From an uncultured Acidobacteriota bacterium (GTDB lineage: Bacteria > Acidobacteriota > Thermoanaerobaculia > Gp7-AA8), in NCBI GenBank assembly GCA_963822445.1, contig CAWGHO010000003.1, forward strand, positions 1,280,001 to 1,344,000: a DNA stretch of 64,000 nt, written 5' to 3'. The notes beneath the pieces are model-generated. The model was not told the DNA's origin and did not search any database. It worked only from the letters and a program-made list of their open reading frames with translations. Of the stretch, positions 281 to 49,697 are shown in pieces; within the stretch, counting starts at the first letter, position 1, and the number at the start of each line of letters is the position of its first letter. The translations under genes were made by a program, and so were the position numbers.

Positions 281-365
281 GGGGAACATCCTCCGGTTCG
301 GTCTGAGAGAGTTATTGTAGTCGAGCCTGACCGCGTAAAGCGCTTTGCGGTACCATTTCCGTGCG

Positions 366-950: not shown

Positions 951-1021
951 CGGGCACGGCCCGCAGCGCCGGTTGCCCAAGGCTTAGGCACGAGAGTCGT
1001 CAAACGCAGGAGCAAACTAGG

Positions 1022-1396
1022 ATGGCTTCAAGAGCAACAGCAGCAGCACGAAAGACTTCCGAACAACCCGCACCGCGCCGGCAGCCGGTCGAAACGCAGA
1101 TCCCCGATTTCGATCGCCTGATTCACGAGAAGACCCGCCTGGCGATCGTGAGCGCGCTGGCCGTGAATACGACCCTGAGCTTCAACGAGCTCAAGGCGAT
1201 CCTCAAGACGACCGACGGCAACGTGAGCGTGCACGCCCGCAAGCTCGAGGAAGCGGGTTACCTCTCGTGCAAGAAGTCGTTCGAGGGGCGCATGCCCAAG
1301 ACTGAGTACTCGCTGACCGCCGCGGGGAAGAGAGCGCTGGAGAAGTACCTCGGGCACATGGAAGCGCTGATTACTGCGGTAGGCGGTAGGCGGTAG
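1022..1396 (+). CDS. Winged-helix transcriptional regulator (HTH_34/MarR-ArsR-like)
   Basis: FDRLIHEKTRLAIVSALA...LSFNELK..L.TTDGNVSVHARKLEEAGY...K.FEGRMPKTEYSLT..G..AL..YL..ME. The real start is probably MASR at 1022, within ORF 539..1396. Confidence 0.9.
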   Translation: MASRATAAARKTSEQPAPRRQPVETQIPDFDRLIHEKTRLAIVSALAVNTTLSFNELKAILKTTDGNVSVHARKLEEAGYLSCKKSFEGRMPKTEYSLTAAGKRALEKYLGHMEALITAVGGRR

Positions 1397-1488
1397 GCAG
1401 TAGGCGGGAGAACGTTGTTGCTGGTTCTCCTGCCTACCGCCTACCGCGAGCCGCGCCTTGGCGCGGCGTACTGCCTACTGCCTACTGC
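1376..1488. repeat. Heptamer (GCRGTAG)n inverted-repeat element between convergent genes; probable bidirectional terminator or REP-like element
   Basis: GCGGTAG x3, GCAGTAG, GCGGGAGAAC-loop-GTTCTCC, CTACCGC x2, hairpin GCCGCGCC-TT-GGCGCGGC, CTACTGC repeats. A second copy lies at 25307-25407. Confidence 0.85.
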
Positions 1489-4400
1489 GCTGGCACGTAC
1501 GTCGGGTCGTTCGTCTTTGCGTCGATCACTGATGCATACGCCGTGGCCCGGCCCTCGCCGCCGACGGCGCGGACGGTGACGCGGGCGTTGTAGACGTCGC
1601 CCATCCCCAGGCCGGCCAGCATGCTGGTGATCTGGCGGAACTCATTGGGGGCCAGATCGACCTGAACGGTTGCCGTGAGTTTCGCGTCGGGGGGCACGAT
1701 CGAGACTTCGAGCGAGACCGGCTTGCCGGTCACTTCGGCGAGGCCGATGTTCGAGCGATACCTTGGCGACTCTTCGACCTGCAGGAGCTGCAGCGGACGC
1801 GAGCCCACACCGACCGCTTCGGCCGGCGTGACCGCGGCGATGAACTGGCCGTACGTGCCCTGGGTGGTCAGGTTGTACGTCCGGGCGGTGGCGATGAGTC
1901 GCGCGGAATCCGCGCTGGTGACGTGCACCGCGCCGCCGTTCTGACTCACACCGAACGTCCCGGTCAGGATCTTGTCGAGCTGGCGCACTTCGCCGGGCTG
2001 CAAGGTCATGCTGGTGACCTTCGGCGCGCCGCCGTTCTGCGAATAGAACGAAAGCGTCAGCTGCTCGGCCGTCGAGCCGGCGTTGAACACGCGCATGTCC
2101 GTCTGCCAGTTCGCGGCGCCGTTGTTCAGATCCGCGACGCCGGGGACGACCCATCTCGTGTTGGCGCTGTCGCTCAGCGTGACCGGCGAGACCAGCAGCG
2201 GATCGGCGGTCTTGTTGTCGAGCACCGACGCGTACGCGGTGACCTTGCCGTTGCCGCTGGTGACGGACACTTCCACGCGGCCGTCATCGAGCGAGGTGAT
2301 GCCGTGCTGCGAGAGGAATCCGTTGAGCTGCGTGTGCTGGCCGCCCTTGAGCAGGACCTCGAACTCGGTGAGCTTCGCGCCGGTCGAGCCGAAGACCTTG
2401 ACCAGCAGGTTGGCCGGCTCGCCCGAGCCTTCGACCAGGCCGAGGTTCGTGCGGTATTGCGAGGAGTGGGCGATCTGCTGCAGCGAAAGCACCTTCGACT
2501 GATCGACGAAATTCGCGAACGGAATGGCGGGGATGTACTGACCGAACGTGCCGTTTGGGGTGATGTTGAACGTGCGCGACGAGGCGAAGGTGACGATGTT
2601 CGCGAGCGCGCCAACCGCCGCGCTCGACGTCGACTTCGCGACCTCGGTCAAAGGCCGGACTTCGAGCGAGCCGACGGAGTTCGTCGAGCCCGTGCCGAAC
2701 CAGGTCTTCAGGATGTCGTCGAGGGCGACGGTGCGCCCGGGCTCGATCGAGAAGGTGGTCTGCCGGCCGGCGGTGATGCCCGCGTCGCCGCTGGGGATGA
2801 AGCTGAGCTGGTACTTCATGACCTGCGCGGAGGTGTTGCTCACGCGGACGTCGGACTGGAAGTGCGAGCCGATGCCGTCCGCATTCGCGACCGCGGGGAT
2901 CACCAGCGCATCGGGCGGCGGTGTGTTCTTCGGCGTCGGCGTGACCGGCGAAACGAGGCTGATGGACACCGGCTTGGTCACGGTCGTACCTGTCGTTCCG
3001 GTGCGGCCGGAGGAACCGGTGGTGATCGCAACGCCGCCGATGTTCGTGCCCGGAGGCAGACCGGCGGTGTTGACGACGACGGTGAGCGTGCGGCCGCCCG
3101 GCGGCACGCTGCCGTTCGACGGGGAGACGGTGATCCACGACGCGGTCGGCGTCGCGGTGAAGGGTTCGCCGGCCAGCTCGGGTCCGAGGGTCAGCGTGTA
3201 CTCGACGAAGTTGGCGTCACCGATCGGCGAAGAGCCCTCGGAGGTCGACTCGGGAAGGATGTAGACGAGCGCCGTCGAGGAGTACGGTCCCATGTTCGAC
3301 GGATTGCAGCGCGTGTCGATCGCGCGTACTCGAACATATTTCGCGATCGGCTCGGTACCACGGTTGGTGAACAGGACGGCGCGCTGGCGCGCGTTGCCGG
3401 TGTCGTTCGTCGTCGTCGAGCCCGCGGCGAAATCAGGATCGGTGGAGATCTCGAACGAGTAGCTGGTCGCGCCGGGAACGAAGGACCATTGCAGGAGACT
3501 TACGACACCAGAAGAGAGCTGACCCGGCGCCGAGATGACCGGCGCTTCGAGTTGCGAACAGGCCGCGACTTGCGGAATCACGACGAAGCGGCTTTCTGTC
3601 GAGTCGAGCGCGGCACAACCCTGAGCGAAGCGGGTCCGGACGAACCAGCGTCCGGCGCCGAGCTGGCGCTGCACGTTCGGCGCGTCGGATTCATCCGTCG
3701 TTCTGACGAGCTCCGGTTCGGCATTGCCGTGCGAGACGTACAACTCGTACGAGGTCGCGCCGGCAACGTCGTTCCAGTCGAGGAACATCGGCGAGGCGAT
3801 GCGCTCACCCTCGGACGGCGCGTGCAGAACGGCGCGCTCGTTGGCGGTGCAGTTCGGCGGCGGCTCGTAGGTGAACCGGCGATGATCGGACTCGGTCGCG
3901 CCGCAACCGCTGAAGATCGCGCGAACGAACCACTCCAGATGACCCGTCGCTACTTCCGCGGTCGCCGACGTCGACGGCGTGGTGACGATGAGCGTCGGCA
4001 CGCCGCCGACCGGCGCAAGGTAAAGCTCGTATTCGATCGCGTTTGCCACCGTGGTCCAGGAGAAGTTCACCGTGGCATTCGAGGTGGTGAAGTCGATCGA
4101 CGGGCTGAGGAGCGCCGGGCGTCCGCGATCGTCGCAGTTCTGCGCGGGAAGAACGGTGAACGTCCATCGCTGCGACTCGCGTGATGGGCATCCGGGGAAG
4201 AGCGTCTCGACCCACCAGGTGTGCGTCCCGGCGGGGATGACTTTCGTCAGCGTGGTATCGAGCGTCGAAGCGAGAACCTCGGGCGCACTCATTCCGGACT
4301 GCAACCAGACGCGATAACCGCTCGATGCGCTCACCGCGGTCCAGCGGAACTCGATCATGCCGTTGGAGATGCTGATGCCGTTCGCGGGCTGGGTCAGCGT

Positions 4401-7400
4401 CGCGACGCCTTCGCACGTCGCCGGCTGCTCGACGGTGAACGACTCCTCGGTGGAGCGGGTCGACGGACAGCCGCTGAAGAGCGTGTCGACGACGAAGGTG
4501 ATGGCGCCCGGCGGGAACGACGCGGTGAGCGAGGTCGCGGTGGTCATCGGGCCCGCGTCCTGGAGTGCTTCGTCGCCGAGGCGATAACGGACGATGTAGC
4601 CGATCGCGTTCGGCACGGCGTTCCAGGACAGGGTCACCGGTGAATCGAACGAGCCGCCGTCCGGCGAGAGGCCGGTGGCAACGCCGTTTCCGGCGCAGGT
4701 GTCGATCTGAGGAACGGTGAAGGAGCGGACGGCCGACGGTTTCGGCGTGCACGACTGCGCGCCGTTCGCGATGACCTGCCAATTGAATGAGCCGCTGGAC
4801 AGCTCGATCGTGAACGCGGTGTTCGCCGTTGTCGCGGCGAGCGTCAGATCGTCACCCGCTTCGCCGATCCAGAGCTCGTACAGCGTCGCGTTCGCGACCG
4901 GATCCCAGTCGAAGGTCACCGGCGAGGTGAGGTTGTTCGCGCCGTTTTCGGGCGCGACGAGATTCGGCTCGTTGGGCGGGCACTGCGCGGGCGGCGCGGA
5001 GACCGACGTCGTCGCGGAGCTGCTGTCGTTGCTGTTGCTCGGATCGGCGCTGGTCGTGCTGACCGTGGCGATGTTGGTGACCGTCGCCGGGCCCTGCGGT
5101 GCGGTGACGTCGATGGTGATGACCTGCGAGGCGCCGGCGGCGAGCGTGCCGAGGCTGCAGTTCACATTCGGACCGCTGGTGCAGAGACCAGATGAGACGG
5201 AGACGAAGGTGACGTTCGCGGGCAGGATGTCGCTCACCGTCACCGCGTCGGCGTTCGCCGGTCCGTTGTTGGTGATGGTCAGCGTGTAGGTGAAGCTCGC
5301 GGCCGAGGCGACATTCGCCGGTGCGGACTTGGTGATGGCTACGTCGGCCTGGTTGCTCGTGACGGTGATCTGGTGCGTTGCGCTGCCGGTGCACTGGCCG
5401 GCGGTCACGTTCACGCCGAGCTGGGTGGTGCCGACCGAGCCGGCGGTGACGGTGATGTTGTTCGTGCCCTGGCCGCCAGTGATGGTGCCGTTGGTGATCG
5501 ACCAGTTGTAGGTTGCGCCGCTGACGGCGGTCGCGGTCGCGGCTCCGTTCGCGCCGGGATTGAGCGCGGTGGGAGCGGTGATGCTGATCGTCGGACAGGC
5601 GGAGATGGCGGTCGTGATCGAAGCCGTGTGCGGATTCGGATCGCTCGAGGACGTAACCGTCGCGACGTTCGTCACCGAGTACGCCGGTCCGCCGCTGAAC
5701 GAGTAGGTCGCCTGAACCGATGCGCTCTGTCCGGAGTTGAGCGTGCCGAGCGAGCAGGGGAACGCCGTGCAGGCGCCGGTGGCAGAAACGAAGGTCAGAT
5801 CGGCAGGCGTCGGATCGGAGAGCGTGACGCTGTTCGCCGCGGACGCTCCGCCGTTGGTCACGTTGATGGTGTAGGTGATGGTGCTGGCGTTCGTCGGCGA
5901 GACGCTCGTTGGGCCGGTCTTCGTCACGCTCAGCGTGGTGGCGGTGATGGGGAAGGCCGTGTTTGCGTTGCTCGAGCACGAGTTGACGGTAGCCGTCACG
6001 TTGAGGCTCACCGTGCCGCTCGGGCCGGCGGTGAGGTTGATGGTGTTCGTGCCCTGGCCGCCGGTGATCGTGCCGTTGGTGATCGACCAGCTGTAGGTCG
6101 CGCCGGCAACGGACGTCGCGGTCGCAGTTCCAGCCGCGCCGGGCTCGAGTGAGGTGGGAGCGGTGATGGTGATCGTCGGGCAGGCCGCGACGTTCGTGAC
6201 GACCGAGGCGCTGTTGTTGCCGGAGTTCGGATCGTTGGCCGAGGAAACGGTGGCGACGTTGGTCACCGCGTATGCCGAACCGCCGGTGAACGAGTAGGTC
6301 ACCTGCACGTTCGCTGTCTGTCCGTTGGTGAGTGTGCCGAGCGAGCAGGGGAACGCCGAACAGGCGCCGGTTGCGGAGACGAAGGTGAGGTTGGCCGGCG
6401 TCGGATCGGACAACGTGACGCTGTTCGCGACCGACGGGCCGTTGTTGGTCACGTCGATCGAGTAGGTGAAGGTGCTGGCCGTCGCCGGCGAGACGTTCGC
6501 CGGGCCGCTCTTCGCCACGGAGAGATCGGCGTGGACGGGATTGATGGTGACGACCGCGCTCGGATTGCTGACGCAGCTGCCGCTGGTGACGTTGACGCCG
6601 AGGCTCACCGTGCCGCTCGTACCGGCGGTGAAGGTGATGCTCGAAGTGCCCTGGCCGCCGGTGATCGTGCCGTTGCCGATCGACCAGTTGTAGGTCGCAC
6701 CGGCGACACTGGTGACGCTGGCGACGTTGCCGGCCGATCCGCCGTTGACCGCGCCGGGCGCGGTGATGGACGTGGCCGGGCAGTTGGAGACGGTCGTGAC
6801 GACCGACGAGGAATCGTTGCTCGTGTTGCTGTCTGCGGCCGAGCTGACCGTGGCGGTGTTGGTGTAAGTCGTACCGACCGCGCCGCTGATGGAGTAGGTG
6901 ACCTGAACGTTGCTGGTCTGGCCGACGCTCATCACGCCGAGGTTGCAGGGGAGGGTGGCGCAGTCACCGGTGACGCTGAGCTGCGTCAACCCGTTCGGCG
7001 TCGAATCATCGAGAGTCACCGCGCTCGCTTCGGAAGGACCGTTGTTCGTGACCGCGATCGAGTAGGTCACGGTGCTGCCCGACTCCGGCGGCACGTTGGA
7101 CGGACCGGCTTTCACGACCGCGACGTCCGCTTCCTGGGCGATGGCGTTGGTCGCCGTGGAGGTGTCGTCGCTGGAATCGAGATCGGTCGGCGACGCGGCA
7201 CTGACGCTCGCCGCGATCTGCGCGTTGCCGGTCGCGTTCGGAGAGACGCTCCAGGTCGCATTGATGGTGACCGACTGACCGATGGTGAGGTTGCCGAGCG
7301 CGCAGGGGAAGCCGTTCGTGCACGCTCCGCTGGCCGAGCTGAAGGTGAGCTGCGCGGACGGTGTGATCGCGAGCGTCACGCTGTTCGCGGTGTCGGGACC

Positions 7401-14567: not shown

Positions 14568-14616
14568 GAACCCCCCCAGTGGACCGGAAAACTGCCTCGA
14601 TTTGCCGAAGAAACAA

Positions 14617-14638
14617 AGTGTAACGGGAAACGTTCCCG
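14617..14638 (-). promoter_or_regulatory. Putative promoter for giant gene C: -10 TACACT with an adjacent palindrome
   Basis: Minus-strand TACACT at 14622-14617. Inverted repeat CGGGAA-acg-TTCCCG at 14624-14638. Confidence 0.4.
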
Positions 14639-14658
14639 CGCTGTGATTCAGCGCACGA

Positions 14659-14681
14659 GATGGGCCCCTGGCGGGCCCATC
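14659..14681 (-). terminator. GC-rich hairpin just after the stop of giant gene B
   Basis: GATGGGCCC-ctggc-GGGCCCATC, a few nt after TAA. No strong U-tract. Confidence 0.5.
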
Positions 14682-14685
14682 CGGC

Positions 14686-25188: not shown

Positions 25189-25217
25189 CTGGCCCCTCTC
25201 TGGGTTGGAGAACGCTC

Positions 25218-25243
25218 ATTTTACAAGAGTTTCAAATAACTCT
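25218..25243 (-). promoter_or_regulatory. Putative promoter for giant gene B: -10 TAAAAT with an adjacent palindrome
   Basis: AT-rich gap with minus-strand TAAAAT at 25223-25218. Inverted repeat AGAGTT-tcaaat-AACTCT at 25226-25243. Confidence 0.45.
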
Positions 25244-25306
25244 GGAAGGGGAGCGTCGATTAGATGTAAGTCGGGGGAGGGAGGGGGGCAGTGCGGAAGG
25301 TCACAA

Positions 25307-25407
25307 GCAGTGGGCAGTGGGCAGTAGGCAGGGAGGAGAACCTCTAACTGGTTCTCCTGCCTACTGCCTACTGCGAGCCGCGCTTGGCGCGGCGTACTGC
25401 CTACTGC
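25307..25407. repeat. Second heptamer inverted-repeat element, at the 3' end of giant gene A
   Basis: GCAGTGG GCAGTGG GCAGTAG GCAG-GGAGGAGAACC-loop-GGTTCTCCT-GC CTACTGC CTACTGC, hairpin GCCGCGC-TTG-GCGCGGC, TACTGC CTACTGC. Same layout as 1376-1488. Confidence 0.85.
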
Positions 25408-37400: not shown

Positions 37401-40400
37401 GCTGAACGATTCGGAGAAGGTGAGCGTGCCCGCGCCGAGGGTCATCGTGCCGTCGTTGACGAACGTGCCCTGCCAGGTGCTCGAGCCGGTGCCCGTGGTC
37501 TTGTTGAAGTTCGCGCCGGTGGCGTTGGTGAACGTCGTGGCGTTGAAGCGCAGCCAGGTCGCGTTACTGAGCAGATTGAAGATGGCGTTGTTGGTGATGC
37601 TGCCCGTCTGCAGGGTGAACGAGCCGGTCATGTCGAAGTTGACGATGCCGTCGTTCGTAGCGACGCGCTCCATGGCCCGGTTGTTCGCGCCGGTGATGGT
37701 CGTCGTGCAGCCGCCACCGAGAATGAGCACGCCGCCACCGGTGAAGTCACCACCGCTCCAGAGGAAGGTGGTGTCGACGGTGAGGGCCGTGCCATTGATC
37801 GTGCCGCCGGTGAGCTCGAGGTTATTGGCGGCCGCACCGTTCGCCGAAACGGTTCCGCCGGTGACCTGCAGCTTCCCGCCGCTCGATTGAAGTCCACCGA
37901 AGGTGTGAGAGCCGGCGTTGTACGCGACCACCGTTCCTGCGACGGTGTCGAAAGTACCGGTGCTGGTGCCGCTGCCGTTCAGGTTCAGCGTTCCGCTGTT
38001 GACGGTAACGAGGTTGTTGTTGCTGAAGGACTCGGAGAACGTGAGCGTGCCCGCGCCGAGCGTCATCGTGCCGTCATTGACGAACGTGCCCTGCCACGTG
38101 CTCGTGCCGGCGGCGGTGGTCTTGTTGAAGTTTCCGCCGCTGGCGTTGGTGAAGATGGGCGCATTGAAGCGCAGCCAGGTGGCATTGCTCTGGAGGTTGA
38201 AGGTGCCGTTGTTGGTGAAGTTGCCGGTATTGAGGGTGAAGGCGCCGGTCACATCGAAGTTGATCGTGCCATTGTTCACCACCGTCGCGACGACGCGTGG
38301 CGAGGCGCCGCTGATCGTGGTCGTGCAGGTGCTGGCGAGGGTGAGAGCGTCGCTGACGAAGTCGCCGGCCGTCCATTGGAGAGAATCGTTGATGGCGAAC
38401 GCCGATGTGCCGGTCATCGTGCCCGCGGTGAGCTCGACGTTCGACGCCGTACCGCTCACAGTCACCGTCGCGCCCGATCCTCGGAGTTTCCCGCTGCCGG
38501 TGAACGCGCCGCTGAATGTGTGACTGCCGGCGGAGTACTCGACGATGCCCGTACCTGCGCCGGTGGCGAACGTGCCACTGCTCGAGCCGCTGCCGCTGAG
38601 TTTCAACGTGCCGGCGGTGACATTCACCAGGTTCGTGTTGCCGAAGGTCTCGGTGAAGTTCAGCGTGCCCGCGCCGAGGTTCATCGTTCCCGCGTTCGAG
38701 AACGTGCCCTGCCATGTAGAGGTGCCCGTGGCGAGGGTCTTGTTGAACGTGGCCGTCGCGGTGTTCAGGAAGGACGTGGAGTTGAAGCGCAGCCAGGTGG
38801 CGTCGCTCTGCAGATTGAACGTGCCGTTGTTGGTGAAGTTGCTGGTGTGCTGCGTGTACGTGCCGGTCATGTCGAAGGTGACCGTGCCGTTGTTGGTGAT
38901 GCCACCGGCGCTGTAGCGGGTGGTGGCGCCGGTGATGGTGGAGATCGAGCCCGTGTCGAGGACGAGCGCGGCGCCGAGGTCGCCGCCGTTCCAGGTCATG
39001 CCGCCGGTGACGGTCAGCGTGAATGCACCGCTGAGGCGCGTGCCCGAACCGTTGAAGGTGACGTTGGTCACGGAGCGGTTCGAGTCCAGCGCGACGTCGT
39101 GGTTGATGACGGCGCTGTCGTACGACTGCGGGAAGCTGCCCGCGCCCCAGGTGGCGGGATTGTTCCAGGCGCCGTTGGTGACGCTGGTGTACGTGGTGGC
39201 GGCGATGAAGGCGAATCCGTTCGTGAGCGAGCCCGTTCCGGCCGCGGTGGTGACGTCGACGTTGTACGTGCCGGAGGCGGTGGCAACGGTGGTCGCAGTG
39301 ATCTGCGACTGGGTGTTCGTGCCGATGCTGATGGGATTGCCGACGGTCACCGAGGCGCCGCTCATCGAGCTGCCGGCGATCGTGACGCCGGTGCCGCCCG
39401 CGGTGGTGCCGCTGGTGGGGTTGATGCTCAGAACGGTGGGCGCCGCCGGATAGCACTTACCAGCGTCGTCCGCATCGTAAATCGCCAGCACCTCGGCAGC
39501 AGAAAGAGCGCGGTTGTAGACCGAGACCTCATCGATCGAGCCGTTGAAGAAGTAGGCCAGGGATTCGTTCTCGTACTCGGCGCCGATCGTGAGCGGATGC
39601 GTGTCGTACGCGATCGACGCGAGCTCCGCGGCGCTCAGGGCGAGCTGGCCGTCGACGTAGAGGCGGATGTCGTTTGCGGCGTCATCGAAGGTCAGCGCGA
39701 CGTGGTACCAGACGCCGGTGGACGGCGTGAAGGCCGTGGTCTTGTAGGTGATGCCGCCCGGACCACCGACGCCGAAGTAGAGCAGGTTGTCCTTGTACGA
39801 GACGCCGTAGGACTCGAACGTGCCCGTGCCCGCCGTCTTGCCGAACAACATCGCGTAATTGCCCACCGGGACGCTGTTGAACTTGACCCATCCCTCGATG
39901 GTCACGTTCGGGGCGGGACGGCTCCAGACGGAGTCCGGGACGCTGACATGCTGGGTGCCGTTGAGAGCGAAGGCCTGCCCGACACGGCCCGCTGCATAGC
40001 CGCCGTTGTTGGTGCCGTTCGTTCCACCGGCGCCGTCGGTCGCATCTCCTTCGCCTCGGAACCACGACACGACGCCACTGGTGGTGATGTCGCAAAGCGC
40101 GGCGGCGTAACTGAACGCGCTGGTCAACGTGTCCGACCCGTCTGGATTGGTGACGGTGACGTTGACCGTGCCCGCGCCGGCCGGTGTGCGCACTTTGAGG
40201 ATCGGTGAGGTCGAGAGGATGGTGGCGTTGCTCGCTCCGAACTGAACCTGCGTGACGCTGCTGAGGTTCGTGCCGGAGATCTCGGTGTAGGTTCCGCCGT
40301 TGACCGTGCCGCTGGTGACGGAGAGCGCGGTGATCGTCGGCGAGCTCGCGTTGTACGTGAACGCATTGAGCTTCGTGTGCGCTTCGGTGTTCGCGTTGGT

Positions 40401-43400
40401 GACGGTGACATTGACCGCGCCCGCGGCGTGGGCGGGGGAGGTCGCGGTGAGCTCGGTCGCGCTCTGCCAGAGAACCGGCGTCGCGAAGGTCGTGTCGAAT
40501 TTGACCGTGCCGGTGAAGTTCTCGCCGGGCGTGGTGCCGGTGAAGCCGGTGCCGGTGATGGTGACCGCCGTGCCGCCGGTGAGGCCGCCCGACATCGGGG
40601 ACAGCGTGGTGATGGTCGGGCCACTCGCGGTCAGCGTGAGATCGTTCGCGTTGTAGGTCTCGGCCAGCGTACGCGTGCCGGCGAAGGTGTAGTTCTTGGT
40701 GATGAAGTCGCCGCTGCGACCGCCGAACGTCAGCACCTGGAACGCGGTGCCGCCATCGGGGACGTAGCCGATGTTCACTTCCGGAGTCGACGTTCCGGAA
40801 AGCGTCACGGTGCCGGTGACGGCGATGCGGCCGAAGTCCGTCAGCGGCGTCGGGCCGTTGATGGGGAACTTCAGCGTGCCGTTGCTGGTCAGGCCGCTGG
40901 GGAAGGCGAGGATGCCCGTGGCCGCGCCGATGGTGCCCGTCGCGGTGTTCGTGCAGACGCCGCCGCAATGAACGTTGCTCGTGCCGGTGCCTCCGGTCTT
41001 GCCGAAGAGACCACTGAGGCCGAAGGTGCCGGCGCCGCCGGTGCCGTCGTACCCGAAGTCGTGATCGCCGGTGATGGCCAGCGAGGCCAGAGCACCGGCG
41101 AGGCTGAAGGAGCCGCCGTTGCGGAAGCCAACCGTGGTGCCGGCGTTCATCGAGCCGGCGATGGTGATCGTTCCACCGTCGACCTTCGGGGTCTGCGTAC
41201 CGGCGACGGCGTTCAGCGTCGCGCCGCTGTCGATGGTCAGACCGCTGCCGGCGATCGATGCTTCCTTCCAGGTGAGGATGCCCGTCAGCGTGACGCCGTT
41301 GAAGGTCATCGTGTTCGCGCCGCGCAGCATCAGCACGCCGGTCGTCGGCGCGGCGATGTTGCCGGCGAAGCTCGCCGCGCTGTTGACGTCGTGCGTGCCG
41401 TTGCCGATGAAGCTCGCGCCGGTCAGGAAGGTCGCGCCGTTGCTGAAGCGAACGGTCGCGCCAGCCGCCGCGTTGAACGTGCCGTCGCTCGTGATCGGCG
41501 AAGTGATCTCGATGATTCCGCTGTCGGACTGGATCGTGCCCGAGCCGCTGAGCGTCGCGCCGCCGCCGAGGGACATCGGCAGCGAGCCGCCGCTCTTGAG
41601 GATCGTTCCGGAGTTGTCGATCGAGGCGACGAGGCCGACGCCGTCCCAGCGGAAGTCGCGATCGTCCTGGATGTCGACGAGACCGCCGATGTCCATCGAG
41701 GAGCCGTTGGTGAAATGGACGGCGGCGCCCTGGAGCTCGAGCGTGCCGTTGTTCTGCCACGCCAGTCCGTCAGCGATCTTCACCGTGCCGCCGCTGATGG
41801 TGGTGATGACCGTTCCCGGCGGGGTCTGCAGGGTGTTGCCGATGAACGTGGCGTCCTTCCACTCCAGATTGCCGGTGAAGGTGGCCGTGGTCCAGGTGAT
41901 GTTCGCGATCGCGTCGATCCGGAAGATGGTCGCGCTCGCGGAGATCGAGCCCTTGAGCTCGACCGCGCTGTTGATGAGGATCGTGCCCGTGCCGGTGAAG
42001 TCGGTGCCGGTCTCGAAGGTGCCGCCGGTCGAGAACTGCATCGTGGCGCCGTTGAGCACCTGGAAGGTTTGCGAGGCCGCGGGGTTCGCGGAGATCCTGC
42101 GGCCGCTGGTGGCGCTGCCAATGATGAAGCCGGCGGTGGTGATGTCGCTGGTGATGTTCAGCGTCCCCGACTCGCCGCTGATGAAGCCGATGTTGTTCAG
42201 CTCCGCGCCGCCGCCGAGCGAGCTCAGTCCCGCCCCGGCGATCTTCTTGATGATGCCGCTGTCGTTGTTGTCGATCTGAACGATGGCGCCTGCGCCGTTC
42301 CACATCAGGTCGAAATCGCCGTTGATGTTGATCGTCCCGTCGTTGTTCAGCGATGCCCCGTTTGACAGATGGAGGCTGGCCGCGTTGAGGTTGATCGTGC
42401 CGTCGTTGACGAGCGGCGAGAACTCGATGGTGTGGGTGACTGCAGTGGCGATGTTGAGAATCGACCCGTTGGAGATGGTCAGGCCCGCGGAGATCGTTCC
42501 GCTGTTCCAGGCCATCGTCCCGTCGACGGTGAGGTCGAGGGAGCCCCAGAGATTGGCGTTGAGCTGAATGTCGTTGATCGTCGCGCTGACGTCGACGGTC
42601 ACGTCGTGATTGACGACGACGTTGTCCCACGCGTTGGGAACGACGCCGCCCTGCCAGGTGGCCGTGCTCGACCAGTTGCCCGGACTCTGCGTCTGAATGG
42701 TCTGGGGCAGGGCGACGGTGAAGGACTTGAAGCTGGTGCCGATGGTGGAGGCGGTGACGCTGATCGTGCCCGTGGTCGCTCCGGCGGGGACGGTGGCGTA
42801 GATCTCGGTGTCCCCGCTGATCCCGAAGCCGGGGTCGGAGACGCCGTTGAACTTCACGTCGGTCGCGCCGGTGAAGTTCGAGCCGTAGAGGGTGACCGCG
42901 GTTCCGGTCGCGCCAATGGTCGGCGTGAAGCTGGCCACGGACGGATCAGTCGCGCCCCATTGCTGAGCGATGCCGGCGCCCCATTCCGTGGCGTAACTCG
43001 CCACCCCATTCACCTCGGCGAAAAGATTCGTCGTGTCGACCCAGCCCGCGGGAAACGTGGGAGTGGTTCCGAAGTCGCGAATGGGGACGAACGTCCGGAT
43101 GTCGCCACTCCAGTTGAGATTCGGCCAGTAGTACTTCAGGTCGACCGTGGACGGATCGCCGCTGAGGTTCCAGAGGAAGTTCACGCGTGACGTCGAGGTG
43201 ACGTCGGTGACCAGCACGTTGATCGTAGCCGCGGAGGCGGAGGTGATCTCGATCGGCGCGTATCCACCGGAGAGATCGCTGATGGTCTCGAACCTGCGCA
43301 TCTGTCCGGCGGGAATGGCGATGGAGAGGTTGCCCTGCACGCCGCCGAAGGTCCGGCTGATCGTTCCTGTCGAGGCAACGGTCAGCTTCCGCGGCGACTC

Positions 43401-46244
43401 GATCACGATGTTGCCGCCGCCGCTCAGATCCACGAGGTTGGTGACGGTGAGGTCGTAGCCGGCGAACGAGTCGAGCTCCATCCCGTAAGTGCCGGTGATG
43501 CGAAGAGTGGGAATCGAGATCGCGGCGGTGGACGCGCCGCTCAGCTCGCCCCACCACGAGGAGGCGGTGATCCAGAGCTCGCCGGTCGTGCCGCCGTTGA
43601 AAGCGCCGTCGATGATCAGGTAGGCGGCGATCTTCAGAATGCCGCTGTTCAGCTCGAGCGTGCCGGGCGTGTCGATGAGGACGACGTCCTGCGAGTCGAT
43701 CGCGAAGCTGCCGAGATTGAAGGTGCCGTCGAGGATGAACAGCTCGTCGGCGACGCTGGCGTTGCCGGCCAGCGTCGCCGTGCCGGAGGATTTGTCGATG
43801 GTCAGATCTTCGTACGCCGTGCCGCGGACGATCTGCGCGCCGGTGCCGTTGTAGGTGACGCCGGAGGAGTTGCTGACGAACGTGCCGGTGTGCAGAAAGT
43901 CGCCGCCGATCTCGAGCAGGCCAAGGCTCAGCACCAGCGCGCCATTGCCGGTCACGTCGCCGGTCACCACGGCGCCCCTGCTATTGAGGTCCAACGTGGC
44001 GAGGCCCGGTCCGTTGACGATGGCCAGCGATGCAGCGTTCAGCGCCGCAGGCGCGAAGCCGCTCAGAGTCTTGGTGGCGGCGGTGGCGCCGGTGGTGACG
44101 ATCACATGCCCGTAGAGCGGGGTGATGTCGATGATCTGGTTGCCGTCGGCCTCGTAGATGACGGTGCTGGTCGGATCGGTGATGTGCGTGCCGGCCGGCA
44201 TCGTCGCGCCGATGCGCAGGGTGGTGTTCGCGCCGAGGTTGACCGTGCCGTTGCTGGTGAGGGTGAAGCCGCCGTCGAAGAGCGTGCCGGCGGTGAGGGT
44301 GAGGATCGTCGCGGTGGCGGCGCCGCCGAGCGTGGCCGTGCCTGCGCTCTTGTTGATGGTCAGCGCGTCGTACAGCGTGCCGCGGATGGTCTGGGCATTC
44401 CCGCCGGAGAAGGTGATGTCGTAAGTCGGGGTGATCGTTCCGGAGAAGGCGGTGTTGCTTCCCTCGAGGATGACCAGGCCTCCGGCGCTCTTGGTGATCT
44501 CCCCCGCGCCGATGAGCGAGCCGTCGATGGTGAGGGTGTTGCTGCCGATGTCGAAGACGACCGTGGAATTGTTCTGATCGACTTCGAGCGAGCCGTTGAT
44601 CGAGATCGAACCGCTCGCGGTCTTGGTCACGTTCACCGCCGGCAGTCCGAACGCGGTGATGGTCAGGTTCTCGTAAAGAATGTTGGCGATGGTCTGGTTC
44701 GCACGGGCGTCGTAAGTGATGGTGCTGGTCGGAGAGAGGGCGTAGCTCTGGAAGACCGGCAGGGACGTGCCGTTCCCCGGTTGCGCGCCGGACGTGGTGC
44801 CGATGCGCAGCACCGCCCCGGCATTCATGAGCAGCGTGCCGCTGGTTCCCGGCCCTGTGATCTGGTAACCCTGGTCTTCGAGATAGCCGTCGATGCTGAG
44901 GTTGCCGTTGATGGTGGTGACGCCGCCGAGAAGGCGCGTTTCGAGCGCGCCGGTCGTGGTGAGATGGTGGTAGGTCGTGCCACGAACCGCGACGGGCGTG
45001 CCGGTGTAGTTGACGGTGTTTCCGCCGGCGCTGGCGTTGAAGGTGCCGACGGTGATCTGCCCTTCGACGTTCAGCGTGCCCGTCGAGCCCTGATTCCACG
45101 TGCCGCCCCCGGCGAGACCGGAGGCGTCGGTGAGCGTGATCGTGCCGTTGTTGAGGACCGATCCCGCAACGGTGATCGTGTTGGTGAGGGTCAGCGATTC
45201 GCCGGAGGGGATCTCGCGCGGCGTGCCGGTATCGAAGTACACCGGCGCGTTGATCGTGCCCAGTCCGATGAGCTGCGCGCCGGTGGTGCCGGGGAGGGTG
45301 AGGTCGGCCGTGCCGTTGATCGTTCCGGCGACGGTAGCGGTCCTGGTGACGGTCATGCCGAACGAGGACAGGTCGAGGACGCCCAGAACGGTCAAGTTGT
45401 TGACCGTCACGGAAGCGGTGTCGACGGTGACGGTGTGGCTGCCGTTGATCTGGACGTCGTCGATGCTGGTCGGGACCAGGCCGTTGTTCCAGGTCGACGG
45501 CGAGCTCCAGTTGCCGGAAGCGATGCTGGTGATCGGGCCGTCGGCCTGCGCCGCGAAGTGCGCGGCGATGCGCGCAGGGGAGAGAGCCGTGTTGTAGATC
45601 GCGACTTCATCGACCGCTCCGTTGAGGAAGCGGCCGGGGTTCTGGCCCATCCCGATGCGTACGTCGCCGGCGAGGTCGATGGAGGTGAACGTGCTGGCGT
45701 TCGAGCCGGTCTGCACGCCGTCGACGTAGAGCTTGGAGCCGCCGGTGGTGACGACGAGGACGACGTGATGCCACGCCGCCGGGGAGTCGGGAACGCTGCT
45801 GAGGTTCTGCTGGCTGCCGTCGAGATAGAGCTCGCAGAAACCGGTGCCGGCCTGCAGATGAACGAAGTCGGTCGTGGTGGCCGCGACGATGGCCTGGGTG
45901 CCGTTGGGATTGTCGACGTGGACCCAGGCCTCGATGGTGATCGCCGAGCCGCCGCCCCAGTTGCCGGGAAGCTGGACGTAGCTGGAGCCGCCGTCGAACG
46001 CGGCGGCGGTGGTGGCGCTGCCGAGGGCGCCGGCTGTCAGGATGACGTTGTTGTACGTGCCGTGGAGGCTGTTCCCGGAGATGTCGGTGGCAGTTGCGCC
46101 GGACGCGTCGTCGAGCGGGTAGTAGGCGACCGGGTTGTCGGACAGAACGACGGCGCGGTATTCACCGGAGGCTGCGAAGAGGGGGGTGGTCAGCAGCGCC
46201 GCCGCGACCAGCACAACCAAAGCACGACTGAACACACGGCTCAT
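25401..46244 (-). CDS. Giant secreted surface protein A (6947 aa): signal peptide, two LamG/concanavalin-like domains, beta-solenoid repeats, multiple IPT/TIG, DUF11, Ig repeats, FN3-like stalk, shared C-terminal module
   Basis: 20.8-kb ORF with signal peptide ...LLTTPLFA. LamG motifs (PVAYYPLDD...ITIEAWV...WHHVV...LYVDG...F.GAVDEVAIYN.AL) occur twice. Also IPT motifs (GGT.VTI.GT.F...V.F) and DUF11 motifs. Confidence 0.93.
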   Translation of the reverse strand: MSRVFSRALVVLVAAALLTTPLFAASGEYRAVVLSDNPVAYYPLDDASGATATDISGNSLHGTYNNVILTAGALGSATTAAAFDGGSSYVQLPGNWGGGSAITIEAWVHVDNPNGTQAIVAATTTDFVHLQAGTGFCELYLDGSQQNLSSVPDSPAAWHHVVLVVTTGGSKLYVDGVQTGSNASTFTSIDLAGDVRIGMGQNPGRFLNGAVDEVAIYNTALSPARIAAHFAAQADGPITSIASGNWSSPSTWNNGLVPTSIDDVQINGSHTVTVDTASVTVNNLTVLGVLDLSSFGMTVTRTATVAGTINGTADLTLPGTTGAQLIGLGTINAPVYFDTGTPREIPSGESLTLTNTITVAGSVLNNGTITLTDASGLAGGGTWNQGSTGTLNVEGQITVGTFNASAGGNTVNYTGTPVAVRGTTYHHLTTTGALETRLLGGVTTINGNLSIDGYLEDQGYQITGPGTSGTLLMNAGAVLRIGTTSGAQPGNGTSLPVFQSYALSPTSTITYDARANQTIANILYENLTITAFGLPAVNVTKTASGSISINGSLEVDQNNSTVVFDIGSNTLTIDGSLIGAGEITKSAGGLVILEGSNTAFSGTITPTYDITFSGGNAQTIRGTLYDALTINKSAGTATLGGAATATILTLTAGTLFDGGFTLTSNGTVNLGANTTLRIGATMPAGTHITDPTSTVIYEADGNQIIDITPLYGHVIVTTGATAATKTLSGFAPAALNAASLAIVNGPGLATLDLNSRGAVVTGDVTGNGALVLSLGLLEIGGDFLHTGTFVSNSSGVTYNGTGAQIVRGTAYEDLTIDKSSGTATLAGNASVADELFILDGTFNLGSFAIDSQDVVLIDTPGTLELNSGILKIAAYLIIDGAFNGGTTGELWITASSWWGELSGASTAAISIPTLRITGTYGMELDSFAGYDLTVTNLVDLSGGGNIVIESPRKLTVASTGTISRTFGGVQGNLSIAIPAGQMRRFETISDLSGGYAPIEITSASAATINVLVTDVTSTSRVNFLWNLSGDPSTVDLKYYWPNLNWSGDIRTFVPIRDFGTTPTFPAGWVDTTNLFAEVNGVASYATEWGAGIAQQWGATDPSVASFTPTIGATGTAVTLYGSNFTGATDVKFNGVSDPGFGISGDTEIYATVPAGATTGTISVTASTIGTSFKSFTVALPQTIQTQSPGNWSSTATWQGGVVPNAWDNVVVNHDVTVDVSATINDIQLNANLWGSLDLTVDGTMAWNSGTISAGLTISNGSILNIATAVTHTIEFSPLVNDGTINLNAASLHLSNGASLNNDGTININGDFDLMWNGAGAIVQIDNNDSGIIKKIAGAGLSSLGGGAELNNIGFISGESGTLNITSDITTAGFIIGSATSGRRISANPAASQTFQVLNGATMQFSTGGTFETGTDFTGTGTILINSAVELKGSISASATIFRIDAIANITWTTATFTGNLEWKDATFIGNTLQTPPGTVITTISGGTVKIADGLAWQNNGTLELQGAAVHFTNGSSMDIGGLVDIQDDRDFRWDGVGLVASIDNSGTILKSGGSLPMSLGGGATLSGSGTIQSDSGIIEITSPITSDGTFNAAAGATVRFSNGATFLTGASFIGNGTHDVNSAASFAGNIAAPTTGVLMLRGANTMTFNGVTLTGILTWKEASIAGSGLTIDSGATLNAVAGTQTPKVDGGTITIAGSMNAGTTVGFRNGGSFSLAGALASLAITGDHDFGYDGTGGAGTFGLSGLFGKTGGTGTSNVHCGGVCTNTATGTIGAATGILAFPSGLTSNGTLKFPINGPTPLTDFGRIAVTGTVTLSGTSTPEVNIGYVPDGGTAFQVLTFGGRSGDFITKNYTFAGTRTLAETYNANDLTLTASGPTITTLSPMSGGLTGGTAVTITGTGFTGTTPGENFTGTVKFDTTFATPVLWQSATELTATSPAHAAGAVNVTVTNANTEAHTKLNAFTYNASSPTITALSVTSGTVNGGTYTEISGTNLSSVTQVQFGASNATILSTSPILKVRTPAGAGTVNVTVTNPDGSDTLTSAFSYAAALCDITTSGVVSWFRGEGDATDGAGGTNGTNNGGYAAGRVGQAFALNGTQHVSVPDSVWSRPAPNVTIEGWVKFNSVPVGNYAMLFGKTAGTGTFESYGVSYKDNLLYFGVGGPGGITYKTTAFTPSTGVWYHVALTFDDAANDIRLYVDGQLALSAAELASIAYDTHPLTIGAEYENESLAYFFNGSIDEVSVYNRALSAAEVLAIYDADDAGKCYPAAPTVLSINPTSGTTAGGTGVTIAGSSMSGASVTVGNPISIGTNTQSQITATTVATASGTYNVDVTTAAGTGSLTNGFAFIAATTYTSVTNGAWNNPATWGAGSFPQSYDSAVINHDVALDSNRSVTNVTFNGSGTRLSGAFTLTVTGGMTWNGGDLGAALVLDTGSISTITGATTRYSAGGITNNGTVTFDMTGTYTQHTSNFTNNGTFNLQSDATWLRFNSTSFLNTATATFNKTLATGTSTWQGTFSNAGTMNLGAGTLNFTETFGNTNLVNVTAGTLKLSGSGSSSGTFATGAGTGIVEYSAGSHTFSGAFTGSGKLRGSGATVTVSGTASNVELTAGTMTGTSAFAINDSLQWTAGDFVSDALTLASTCTTTISGASPRVVATVVNNGTINFDVTGAFTLNTGNFTNNGTFNLQSNATWLRFNAPIFTNASGGNFNKTTAAGTSTWQGTFVNDGTMTLGAGTLTFSESFSNNNLVTVNSGTLNLNGSGTSTGTFDTVAGTVVAYNAGSHTFGGLQSSGGKLQVTGGTVSANGAAANNLELTGGTINGTALTVDTTFLWSGGDFTGGGVLILGGGCTTTITGANNRAMERVATNDGIVNFDMTGSFTLQTGSITNNAIFNLLSNATWLRFNATTFTNATGANFNKTTGTGSSTWQGTFVNDGTMTLGAGTLTFSESFSNNNQVTINSGALNLNGSGTSSGTFTTAAGTAVAYNAGGSTFNATQTGLGSLQVSGATVTTSGTATVANLDFSSGTMNGAGTMSVSDTFNWTGGSTSGAGTMTLGLLCATTISGSSPLVMERILNNQGSIVYTSTGGLTFQTGNFNNSGTVDLQVDGTWSRFNPSWVMNTGTIKKTAGAGTFTMGVNSDNSGGIVDVESGAINYTQSIAGNASSHYKFGVSSATTAGTMTFTGTPNIGGAQLTAYVVGPFVPQGGQTWSVMSPVSGTFGTTSTSFGAGRSFGVSYPGSSSVLLTASGPTITSLTPNSGTEFGGTSVVIVGTGFAATPTVTFDGVVASVTFNSPTQITATTPAFGGTAPAAIDVVVTNPDGQPATSVGGFTYLATSGPTVSALRPNNANVAGGTTIYIDGTALDTVTSIVFDSTPATIVNQTATLLEVIAPAHAAGNIVVSVTNPAGSANGAFAYNDNWDVARDFSRTVNPTGPWSYGWSATRGSAFNLFTTSTTHGSGYDYWYVGAAPTAFHNPTASPITHSGDVTVPAGTFGGHSGAAGENSVVRWTAPAAGQWQISGAFTGVDQAPTTTDVAVLIGGIEQFSGNVTAYNVPQSFVLRRSLNLGDVVELTVGYGNGNYLDDSTGIAATITPLTGPVVTVTGIAPAIGSPAGGQSVTISGTNFHAGAGVTFDGVAATSITVVNTSTITATTPAHAAGTVDVVVTHPDSADATLTNGYVYSADPHWLNPVSGNWNTAANWSTGVVPTSAQTAYLDATGTYTVTMSGINQTVTGVHVGAGATLSVGSATLILTGPSTIAATGALSVTGTLRFEPGASLTNNGTLTLAGATVATPAGIGSTLTNNATFNITGNVSFGSFNTSGSVGVTINNTGTGTITKSAGAGTTGFDVNWALNNSGALTVTDGTLRLDGSGNTNTGPITITSPGIFEVGTGSFSSTAGSLSGTGTFRSAGGTSTISSTYNVGTAITAGTLTFDTAATTALLTASGGTIAGTGSLTLAGTTHTWTGSTVVQTALTINPGNTLTMSGGAFVFDTGSNLTNNGTFNVTGGGFNSRASIGATWLNPGVVNLSNDVQFGSWNTSGAVGTTIVNSGNINKTAGAATSTLDSTWAVSNGATGTIAITSGILRLEGSGSTNAGAITVTSPGGFEVAGGSFANTTGSIAGSGSFRMTGGTATIANTYAPGATLVSAGNVFFNTAATTNLLTVTGGTISGSGGLTLAGPSPSHTWAGSAELRTSLTIDPGNTLTLSSGAINFETGSNLTNNGVVNVTGGSLNSRASIGAIFANGGTFTLAGDIPFGSYNTSGAVGVTINNSGTLNKTVGTGASAFDTNWVVNNTGTIDIISGTLQFAQNYTQTGTGALTLKLAGTGAGQFSRLTTSAQANLAGTLNINYGIGYTPANADTYQILSFGSRSGDFTTKNGLTFTGGTLNYGLNPTNITLTASAAAALSITKTAAANVAANEVFTYTITVVNAGPDPGSNVSVTDVMQAGMVPSNLSAPSFTCTGTTTLTCTAATLAAGTHTITFDVTAPSAPQAISNVANMTASNDSSGGDNTSTAVTNVGAAQADLAVTKSAAVGTVALGGTVTWNLNVLNNGPSPATSVVITDTLPAGQTVTGATPSTGSCNTVGSVVTCNVGTIGVGNTVTVAINATANEGGTRTNSVAASATEADPNNANDVGTATVTITGDNTLVVTNSNASGTGSLFQAMLDADAGVCPSPCTITFNIATLTPIAGPLPVADVLNLTIDGTTQPGYNATTRVPLIEIDGTSANPGSSGLNVDGDSHVIRGLAIYGFAGPGAAGINIIGGSHTFEANWIGVKPNGVAAPNTQGIFVNSGANVIGSTDPSLGNAIANNGIGIALNFGTANHILGNSIRNNTGLGIDHDGDGVVEILDAGDADTGPNNHQNAPVISLVEITPSDLDVTFSVDSASVLTTNSIRVEVFKADASGEPNEFLGTACFAGRTLTNQLINVPFGSVIAGDGIVATATSFTDGACATVNDGTSEVSASMAATSCVPPPVTITGNTAVCAGGSVILDAGLHSSYFWTPGNFTSQTINVSPTNTTTYTVVVTDASGCSNSDTHTVTVNTPAAVTIAGPTSSCSGNSVVLDAGPGVTYAWLPGGETSQFITVSPTSTTTYSVTVTDGNGCQSGDSHTVTVNTPAPASITPSGPTTFCTGGSVTLTASAGSSFVWTPNGEITSSITVSTSGTYGVTVTDGNGCTSTATPVTVTVNSAPPVAVTGAANSCSGNNVALNATAGFSSYLWQPGNLTGANVNVSPTATTTYTVTATDANGCTSTATHSITVTSAAPVSITGPANSCAGNSVTLNATAGFTSYLWQPGNLTGATINVTPTATTTYTVTATDAGGCTSSTSHTVNVTTPAPATATASGPTTFCAGGSVVLNASAGASYQWLPNGETTSSITVNASGAYSVIVTDAGGCTSTSNSVTVTVNPNPAVTITGPTATCDTAAVTLDAGAGFSSYLWQPGNLTTQSITVNPTTTTTYTVTVTNGSGCSATDTHQVTVTANPTATITAPALICSGSTGHTASVGTQPGATYAWSITNGTITGATNTPSITFNPTGLASVQLNVTVTTGSCTANGSATVGVSPTPATPVITAPASVSASTGGHAASIDPQAGASYFWSINNGTFDSATSGPSITFSAGTSSPVTLSVTVNINGCTASASKTVTVDNVPPPVSAADLIVNKSAPASVTAGSTFTYTINVTNNGPAAATDLSIVDTIPAGLTVLSVNGGPWDCTTAGSQITCTGSAFAGQSSTILIGVRAPAQATTVTNTVTVSSAVEDPNDSNNTDAVSTTINVAPPTCPASAPTLTSPANGATNVFSPVTLSWNTVNSASSYDVWVSTEGVLTLAGSTTGNSLSVSVASGVTTWYVVAHGSNGCESLTSDSRTFTVAPSSTCGNNGKPQIISPSAGANATSPLTISWTPVPQAIGYRVWISVDGTEPQDVGATNGALSLSVNVPPGAIDVFVDALFNACPPSRSDGVAFNVPQPDPCANRSAAALVSPANNSQVNSSSVELRWTAPAGTTLPEYRVWASVDGAPPAVIGTTNETSLREVFERGQVVWYVENLYPGCASTESPRFNFTIPARNECGNTKPTLIAPNGNTVANGSVTFTWNGVADAVAYEVWLALGNESATLIGTTAAGVTTFNYSVPPGNLVWHVRALIDRCPARESTPARFTHEPPAACEGNDRPIAISPIGPAPLTSPADFSWSAPEGATRYELYVHRATQPPALVASTTQPQANDIALAAGSYLWFVRAFFDGCSPLDSGEEPVTIVAPPPACAVLVPPVISAPGQISSGIPFLMQWTPVAGASSYQLQVASNEAFDGAEVVSTTATQYEIVRTNNAASAIGLYARVRAIDSRCTPSPAITAYGPVSAIFVLPAQGSEGAAPLAGSEPVTYTINLGAQFAGQSFTAVPTQTWLTVAPASGVVPAGGMNLIVTADTSAVGVGTSLGGITITLNDGLAGRVKSTGTTTVTSPINMSLVTPVSPSPKSTPPPDALIIPAVANADGINSHFQSDVRVSNTSAQLLKYQLTYIPSGDAGITSGRQTTFSIEPGRTVAMDDILKSWFGTGSASSTGTLEVRPLTQTTTNTSSAIVGALANLSTFASSRTFNVTSNGTFGQHIPAIPFANFIGKSANSIAPTVLSLQQIAQSSKYRTNLGLVEGSGQQASLLVKVFGSNGQRLTDFPVVLNGGQHLQLNGVLAQKGVSSLSDGRIEVEVVSGGGKVTAYASVLDNETSDPLLVSPITLGAEGNRKWVVPGVADLNNGTANWQTDLRVFNAGTTEVPATLSFYSQNGGAPKTANVTIPAGQVLNYDKTLSTVFGAANDGGAVHIDTASDARLIATARTYNQTTQGTYGQFISAVTPLEAAGAGTRPLQLLQVEESDRFRSNIGLAEVMGSPVRVEISVVPPDAKFTALLQVDLGPNEFRQIGSLLKTVGLADTFNARVTVRVVEGAGRVAAYASVIDMKTNDPTYVPAQ

Positions 46245-49625: not shown

Positions 49626-49697
49626 CAGGGTTTCGGTTCGACGTTTACCACATTGTCGATCGGAATCACAGTTCAGGGAACCTGCGGAGGACGATCG

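Follow-up and report, generated by a model that had tools for sequence, protein, structure and literature searches.

A four-domain C-terminal module with an ASRAH-type sandwich in giant proteins of Thermoanaerobaculia: a putative surface tether

Three giant open reading frames (ORFs) lie in tandem on the minus strand of a 64,000-nt stretch of DNA (the window) from the uncultured Acidobacteriota bacterium GCA_963822445.1 (contig CAWGHO010000003.1, positions 1,280,001-1,344,000; positions below are those of the window unless stated otherwise), and their predicted products of 4361, 3500 and 6947 residues, encoded by genes A (1482..14567), B (14686..25188) and C (25401..46244), respectively, end in a common C-terminal module. 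We find that this module represents a family without a Pfam or NCBIfam model which, going by the source labels of its sequences, is specific to the class Thermoanaerobaculia; that it is best described, from its predicted structure, as four related beta-sandwiches of two alternating subtypes (a-b-a'-b'); and that, in the model, sub-domain a' is an ASRAH-type sandwich of the kind found in TM1070 and in the sensory rhodopsin transducer of Anabaena (ASRT). The tail probably tethers the giant proteins to surface polysaccharide. In the literature searched we did not find the family, its architecture on giant proteins or its restriction to one class described; the class of fold has been known, and extracellular ASRAH tetrads proposed, since 2009 (PMC2739507).

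Anatomy and predicted fold of the module

The three ORFs, at 64-69% G+C, had been singled out in an original prediction made from the sequence alone, whose coordinates for the tandem array proved exact. In an alignment of the last 1500 residues of the proteins, the common module begins sharply about 492 residues ahead of each stop codon (gene A, 1482..2960, 492 residues plus stop; gene B, 14686..16179, 497 residues plus stop; gene C, 25401..26897, 498 residues plus stop; all on the minus strand), with pairwise amino acid identities of 0.825, 0.740 and 0.734 inside it and of 0.425, 0.386 and 0.561 over the 970-990 aligned residues upstream. At 73-83% identity, the modules had been called near-identical with some exaggeration, while the internal duplication proposed alongside is borne out in all three proteins: unit 1 (253-259 residues) aligns with unit 2 (222-223 residues) at 27-35% identity (BLASTP E 1e-24 to 4e-34), and the two motifs a and b noted earlier turn out to be the two halves of each unit. 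In gene A these halves correspond to sub-domains a (2523..2921, module residues 14-146, carrying the F-Q-S-D-V-R-V-S-N strand) and b (2187..2522, residues 147-258) of unit 1, and a' (1821..2177, residues 262-380) and b' (1485..1820, residues 381-492, ending DPTYVPAQ) of unit 2, all on the minus strand. Profile comparison with hhalign links like to like with high confidence (a1-a2, probability 99.8%, E 4e-28; b1-b2, 99.9%, E 3e-35) and also crosses the subtypes (b1-a2, 91.9%, E 7e-7; a2-b2, 90.4%, E 1.4e-6), with the a1-b1 (2.7%) and a1-b2 (31%) comparisons showing no subtype link. Because a and b are distantly related by this measure, the earlier (ab)2 formula is better replaced by that of four related sandwiches.

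At four-fold degenerate sites the three genes show identities of 0.62-0.67 within the module and of 0.48-0.57 upstream of it. Since even the module value is only 0.62-0.67, the paralogues are old. Purifying selection appears to account for most of the high protein identity of the module, past exchange having been modest at most; the constraint on the module exceeds that on the remainder of the protein. These same values led us to reject recent gene conversion as the main cause of the similarity, and they give no sign of recent recombination, as would suit the earlier idea of variable tips being swapped onto the module.

An AlphaFold2 model of the module from a 68-sequence alignment is all-beta and confident (pLDDT 90.5, pTM 0.89), with four sub-domains of about eight strands each (a, residues 19-144; b, 157-257; a', 263-380; b', 381-490), and unit 2 modelled alone reaches a pLDDT of 94.3; the model consists of sandwiches and not of a barrel, unlike an autotransporter. 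We aligned the model to 48,161 PDB representatives with a tool that calls Z-scores under 8 common. Only two chains reach Z>=8, both of the ASRT family, all others remaining at Z <= 7.4: Thermotoga maritima TM1070 (1nc7_A; Z 13.5, root-mean-square deviation 3.5 Å, 113 of 116 residues aligned, over module residues 263-380) and ASRT itself (2ii7_A; Z 9.0). The unit-2 model repeats the result (Z 12.9 and 8.9, respectively), and in a domain-level Foldseek search 1nc7 chains take ranks 1-3 with probability 1.00 and TM-scores of 0.72-0.73; with the entire 492-residue model Foldseek returns multi-Ig chains only (TM-scores 0.09-0.15) and is uninformative. As a' superposes on TM1070 and ASRT, we place it in the ASRAH superfamily, to which the strong a1-a2 profile match also ties sub-domain a of unit 1. 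The best fold matches of b' stay at Z <= 7.2.

The ASRAH superfamily was defined by De Souza, Iyer and Aravind in 2009 (PMC2739507). That paper describes the fold as an eight-strand sandwich built from two four-strand repeats, in which strand 1 begins with a polar residue followed by a conserved Trp, strand 2 ends in a nearly invariant Asn, and a ligand cleft is lined by strand 2 residues, of which H25 and C29 are the ligand contacts in TM1070 (signature SHEshChhN). The same text describes extracellular ASRAH domains as dyads (an actinobacterial lipoprotein encoded beside WhiB and a glycosyltransferase) or tetrads (Chloroflexi amidases), links them to cell-envelope glycans, and predicts from context that ASRAH domains bind small molecules, probably sugars (PMC2739507).

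Several of these features recur in the module. Its four sub-domains, and the one-unit proteins with two sub-domains encoded elsewhere in the genome, match the tetrad and dyad organisation. The Asn ending predicted strand 2 is conserved as in ASRAH domains: among the 68 sequences N42 is invariant, as are S36 and D37, and N293 is conserved in at least 90%; in a separate alignment of 21 diverse sub-domain a sequences the corresponding N32 (unit numbering), at the end of predicted strand E23-32, is kept in at least 90%. The strand-1 Trp recurs only in part: all three window proteins have it, as R/K-W, in unit 2, Leu takes its place in unit 1, and an aromatic residue occupies the position in 10 of the 21 sequences. 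Within the strand motif [FW]-Q-[ST]-D-x-R-x-x-N, Asp and Arg are conserved (D37/D288 and R39/R290, invariant or kept in at least 90% of the 68 sequences) and, judging by register with the SHEshChhN signature, may share a strand face with the ligand-contacting H25 and C29 of TM1070. The terminal strand, D-P-x-[YF]-[VI]-P-A-Q, is likewise conserved, and unit 1 holds a matching D-P-L-L-V strand internally.

The module had been called unrecognised, which holds for the family databases, where Pfam and NCBIfam scans of the modules and Pfam scans of five single-unit proteins gave nothing over cut-off, but not for the fold, which is known. Searched against PDB sequences, the module profile has as its sole match the BACON-like stretch of 4zmh. 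DUF5719 (PF18986, mostly Actinomycetota) scores 17.5-28.2 bits in seven unit-bearing ORFs, around its gathering threshold of 26.2; in the genome scan the window genes reach 25.9, 25.4 and 22.7 bits and a neighbouring 1359-residue gene 28.2 bits, and on isolated modules gene B reaches 24.0 bits, with the other two giving no match at E<=1. These borderline matches span sub-domains b and a'. The nearest named Atlas clusters carry DUF5719, and in one of them 39% of members carry DUF5719 and 13% ASRT; DUF5719 and these clusters are the sole bridges at the level of sequence, and they are borderline. DUF5719 probably corresponds to the lipoprotein family with two ASRAH domains that the 2009 paper reports from actinobacteria (PMC2739507); from it the module differs in scores that straddle the threshold, in having four domains rather than two, and in lacking a lipobox and a WhiB/glycosyltransferase neighbourhood. 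The likeness to TM1070 and ASRT (1nc7; 2ii7, PF07100) lies in the eight-strand sandwich, the Asn ending strand 2 and the polar residues on the ligand strand. ASRT proteins, however, are small, intracellular, stand-alone tetramers to which we found no sequence-level match, whereas the module comprises four fused domains of two subtypes at the end of giant, putatively exported proteins. Closest in organisation are the Chloroflexi tetrads which, compared by their description in the 2009 paper, are also secreted, with four ASRAH domains per chain and predicted envelope-glycan binding, but are fused to N-acetylmuramoyl-L-alanine amidases, whereas the module of this other phylum sits on adhesin-like repeats and metalloproteases (PMC2739507). 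Our literature searches found DUF5719 in no paper, nothing relevant on ASRAH beyond the 2009 paper (PMC2739507), nothing on this module under TM1070, DUF1362 or ASRT, and no paper naming Thermoanaerobaculia for giant, adhesin, cell-surface or C-terminal-domain proteins.

Distribution, C-terminal position and passengers

In a representative library of 1.84 billion proteins clustered at 50% identity, 3986 proteins are related to the module at E<=0.001, 831 of them at E<=1e-30, and in all 150 of the top homologues listed (512-5870 residues) the match ends 0-3 residues from the end of the protein. Hits of a near-length search are all labelled "hypothetical protein" and come from Thermoanaerobaculia or unclassified Acidobacteriota. 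Across a sample of the phylum, a one-unit query matches 23 of 401 genomes at E<=1e-8 (22 of 400 without the unpublished genome G004), all 23 in the class of the window and none among the sampled genomes of other classes, which agrees with the lineage specificity originally suggested. Within the class, 216 of 301 sampled genomes match the module at E<=1e-10, including, with strong scores, all 72 of the window's own family (f1); matches in other families are weaker, and some families have none (f13, 0/33; f10, 0/10; f15, 0/8). These class counts include the unpublished genomes G179, G175 and G135 (f1) and G104 (f16), without which they become 212 of 297 and, for f1, 69 of 69.

The tail position is a strong rule with exceptions. 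At 20 loci of other families, picked by score from 14 genomes in seven families, the last unit ends 0-7 residues before the stop codon in 18; at the two exceptions, L040 (G011:C3:190500-193200) and L041 (G021:C2:215900-217200), the frame runs on for at least 178 and 193 residues, respectively. In the genome of the window (6.0 Mb in 3 contigs, 94.7% complete), 29 ORFs are recovered with a hidden Markov model (HMM) of the unit, of which 16 contain it twice and 13 once, and in 22 of the 29 the last unit ends within 11 residues of the stop. Nine genes bear the full tetrad ending DPTY[VI]P[AS]Q, and the module is present in each of the genome's three longest ORFs. The 13 single-unit ORFs encode 239-1059 residues; eleven of them fall between 239 and 382 residues, most of these with signal-like N-termini. 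One single-unit ORF with a signal-peptide-like N-terminus (G000:C3:659816-660475, plus strand) has one in-frame TGA inside the unit and may be a pseudogene or reflect a sequencing error.

Ahead of the module the three window proteins differ in Pfam content, as had been stated of their N-terminal regions. Gene A encodes beta-helix-type repeats and six DUF11 stretches; gene B, eleven DUF11 stretches and PKD-like/Ig repeats; gene C, two Laminin_G_3 domains, six TIG stretches, repeat regions, DUF11 and Ig_7. All three products begin with a signal-peptide-like N-terminus of one or two Lys/Arg residues, a hydrophobic 12-mer (Kyte-Doolittle 2.4-2.9) and an A-x-A-like site, which fits the Sec-type signal peptides first noted, and all three have a Cys-paired stalk before the C-terminal module. 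In gene A this stalk (3303..4979, minus strand) consists of six repeats of about 95 residues, in which Cys-Cys gaps of 75-84 alternate with gaps of 18-19; the module itself contains no Cys. A BACON_2-like stretch (3018..3161, minus strand; 20.9 bits, cut-off 25) directly precedes the module of gene A, BACON_2 scores before the modules ranging from 17 to 26 bits with 26.0 bits at the equivalent site of gene B. Of the earlier description, the Cys pairing stands, and the FN3-like and BACON-like labels rest on weak Pfam matches (for the stalk, fn3 at 13.6-22.6 bits and GH85_C at 27-35 bits). No 19-residue hydrophobic window was found beyond residue 40 of the three proteins, which have no transmembrane segment or lipobox, and autotransporter, RTX, SLH, LPXTG and PEP-CTERM families were absent from Pfam/NCBIfam scans of the modules (E<=1) and from Pfam scans of the whole proteins (E<=0.001), in keeping with the list of anchors reported missing at the outset.

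Across the genome the passengers are varied. The unit is preceded by DUF11 arrays, Big_9, cadherin-like, beta-helix, PKD and leucine-rich (LRR) repeats, by two matrixin-like M10 metalloproteases and by one protease that is M36-like and has a P-domain; the passengers identified in this genome include no glycoside hydrolase. A fourth module gene follows in tandem (G000:C3:1276210-1280289, minus strand), starts inside the window at 1-289 and encodes a product of 1359 residues that combines Ig_7 repeats and a matrixin-like M10 domain with a C-terminal tetrad of the same kind, whose last residues are DPTYVPSQ.

A putative glycan tether and its alternatives

As the module is class-specific, nearly always C-terminal and joined to very different passengers, an anchoring or targeting role is the best reading of it. 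In its more specific form, a non-covalent glycan-binding tether or targeting module for surface display, we regard this reading as an even call, based on the ASRAH fold, the tetrad, the polar residues of the cleft strand, the tail position, the non-glycosidase passengers, the constraint, the lack of a membrane or lipid anchor and the presence in the same genome of a separate tag of the covalent type. We go no higher, since no member of the superfamily is proven to bind sugar and the neighbourhood offers no glycan partner. The separate tag is seen in five other long ORFs of 1625-2804 residues (G000:C2:615880-624294, C1:1131509-1138081, C1:746899-752262, C2:1876793-1881733 and C3:1798026-1802903), some with signal-like N-termini, which end in IPT[LA]-[ST]-[EQ]-W, a hydrophobic helix and a basic tail. 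Both of the two tails scanned exceed the cut-off of TIGR04174 (IPTL-CTERM), and the genome has one weak exosortase match; the three window modules carry no PEP-CTERM or IPTL-CTERM tail by NCBIfam or hydrophobic-window scan. These IPTL-like tails point to a second, exosortase-type tag on a different set of proteins, to which the module would, on the tether reading, be the non-covalent counterpart.

Such a tether would work in four steps. The proteins, with their signal-like N-termini, would be exported by Sec and would then reach the cell exterior, in a genome with two secretin genes and no marker found of a type IX secretion system (T9SS). The compact tetrad would bind an envelope or matrix polysaccharide non-covalently, as the fold, the conserved polar residues of the cleft strand and the extracellular ASRAH predictions of the 2009 paper suggest (PMC2739507). 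Finally, the Cys-paired FN3-like stalk may keep the adhesin-like or protease passenger away from the anchor point.

A number of points weigh against a glycan tether. Sugar binding by ASRAH domains is a prediction of the 2009 paper (PMC2739507), which no experiment is known to bear out for any of them, and studies of ASRT itself have dealt with it as a protein that binds DNA (PMC8660804). Sub-domain b has generic sandwich matches only (Z <= 7.4), to carbohydrate-binding modules (CBMs), GOLD and macroglobulin-type domains. At the level of sequence, Pfam ASRT (PF07100, DUF1362) gives no match on the modules at E<=1 and none in this genome, with a control matched in T. maritima, and the sub-domain a profile finds no ASRT chain among PDB sequences and one chance-level match. 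Small proteins made of one unit alone would have no obvious use for an anchor-only role, and sequence continues past the unit in 7 of the 29 ORFs of this genome and 2 of the 20 loci of other families. No glycan-synthesis or outer-membrane gene recurs beside the module genes of this genome, whose recurring neighbours belong to generic families (histidine kinases, ABC ATPases).

The original prediction of an export or anchoring domain survives in part. An anchoring or targeting role is retained; the unit alone in small proteins of 239-382 residues makes it more than a tag, and no outer-membrane machinery recurs among the neighbours in this genome. That reading had been set against a match to a known ligand-binding domain, to which the ASRAH match comes close, binding by ASRAH being itself a prediction. 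It had also been set against units at random positions; these are instead strongly C-terminal, with a few internal or followed by further domains.

The same ASRAH fold evidence would serve a tail that is a working lectin end for a glycan that is foreign or comes from the environment (a polymer of prey, plant or matrix), CBM-like rather than an anchor to the cell's own surface. Sub-domain b does match CBMs moderately (e.g. 5aot_A, Z 7.1-7.2 over 93 aligned residues), and free single-unit secreted proteins exist; those matches, however, fall within the common range of Z under 8, glycoside hydrolases and lyases, with which CBMs usually go, are absent from the identified passengers, and the tail is constant behind varied adhesin-like heads that already look like binding ends. 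We think a lectin end unlikely. The nearly strict C-terminal position, the conserved last strand, the beta-sandwich fold, the strong constraint and the sheer number of bearers (29 ORFs of one genome, many with signal-like N-termini) would also suit a signal for export or attachment that some undescribed machinery of the outer membrane reads, as with the C-terminal domain of T9SS cargo. That domain, a single beta-sandwich of about 70-100 residues, similarly stands at the extreme C-terminus of large Sec-signal surface proteins in Bacteroidota. The module, with about 492 residues in four sub-domains, is nevertheless some five times larger (the TIGR04183 profile has 72 positions) and far exceeds known sorting domains. 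Its terminal motif is merely the last strand of a sub-domain, with D-P-L-L-V internal in unit 1, units also occur internally or with domains after them, and among the nearby genes no candidate for such machinery recurs. Scanned with NCBIfam, the modules gave no match relevant to the T9SS C-terminal domain, and SprA_N and TIGR04183 matched nothing in the genome, which carries little weight as the control genomes were silent too. An export signal of this kind seems to us quite unlikely.

Docking by protein-protein contacts into a surface lattice, the S-layer idea of the original prediction, or self-assembly, finds some footing in the TM1070 and ASRT tetramers, which, the 2009 paper suggests, extracellular dyads and tetrads mimic (PMC2739507). 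The four sub-domains do pack confidently within one chain (pTM 0.89), but such an intramolecular tetrad may already satisfy the oligomer interfaces, and no S-layer gene or lattice partner was identified here, nor does the neighbourhood point to a partner protein; a predicted complex of two module copies scored 0.00 against a mark of 0.42 and counts neither for nor against self-association. We consider a lattice improbable. Even less credit, to the point of being hardly plausible, goes to a C-terminal folding or secretion helper removed after export, in the manner of the PPC domains of secreted proteases: three unit-bearing proteins are metalloproteases, and sub-domain b' weakly matches a PPC domain (5sv5_A, Z 5.5) and a collagen-binding domain (1nqd_A, Z 5.9), but neither match is more than weak and generic, proteases are a minority of the passengers, and the size and tetrad organisation of the module are unlike those of PPC domains.

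The putative glycan tether would share its logic with SLH and other non-covalent cell-wall modules, in which a conserved repeated module tethers varied exported proteins to envelope polysaccharide; the fold of SLH domains is unrelated, and no SLH match appeared in the scans of modules or whole proteins. An extension to the whole class is a tentative proposal that we think somewhat more likely wrong than right: by recognising a Thermoanaerobaculia-specific glycan of envelope or matrix, the tetrad would hold giant adhesins and proteases on a diderm cell, functionally like SLH domains on secondary cell-wall polymer, in parallel to IPTL-CTERM and exosortase, perhaps under the control of an HTH_34 winged-helix protein. 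The gene for the latter (1022..1396, plus strand, 124 residues) is convergent with gene A, and its homologues, at 72-83% identity, lie about 0.1-9 kb from module genes in all five related genomes compared (G083, G147, G002, G012 and G215), making it a candidate regulator of the arrays.

If the tether holds, it would explain how these bacteria keep very large adhesins and proteases on their surface, pose the first testable ligand question for an extracellular ASRAH domain, and offer a handle for annotation and surface display in the group. Thermoanaerobaculia are common in soil and sediment with almost no experimental biology, and the largest proteins they encode end in this tail; with an HMM of the unit of about 230 residues, thousands of hypothetical proteins would gain an annotation.

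Other features of the window

The HTH_34 gene lies at the end of a longer ORF (2-1396, plus strand, 464 residues), which was rejected as a gene since only its last 124 codons look coding; the remainder (2-1021, plus strand) is a spurious frame of high GC in which R, G and D abound. Residues 51-363 of the longer frame have 34-47% matches in related genomes, in separate frames and some with stops, and a conserved element may exist there.

Beyond the array, the gene at 52013-53482 (minus strand) encodes a 489-residue protein whose N-terminal segment is hydrophobic and which contains Kelch repeats and a Calx-beta domain. It lies near genes for an M54 archaemetzincin-like peptidase (50378-51055) and for a DUF4272 protein (51299-51949). 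At 48426-49829 (minus strand), a 467-residue protein shows the unusual pairing of a TIR_2 domain (residues 77-208) with a GH25 lysozyme-type domain (residues 293-429), separated by a hydrophobic stretch.

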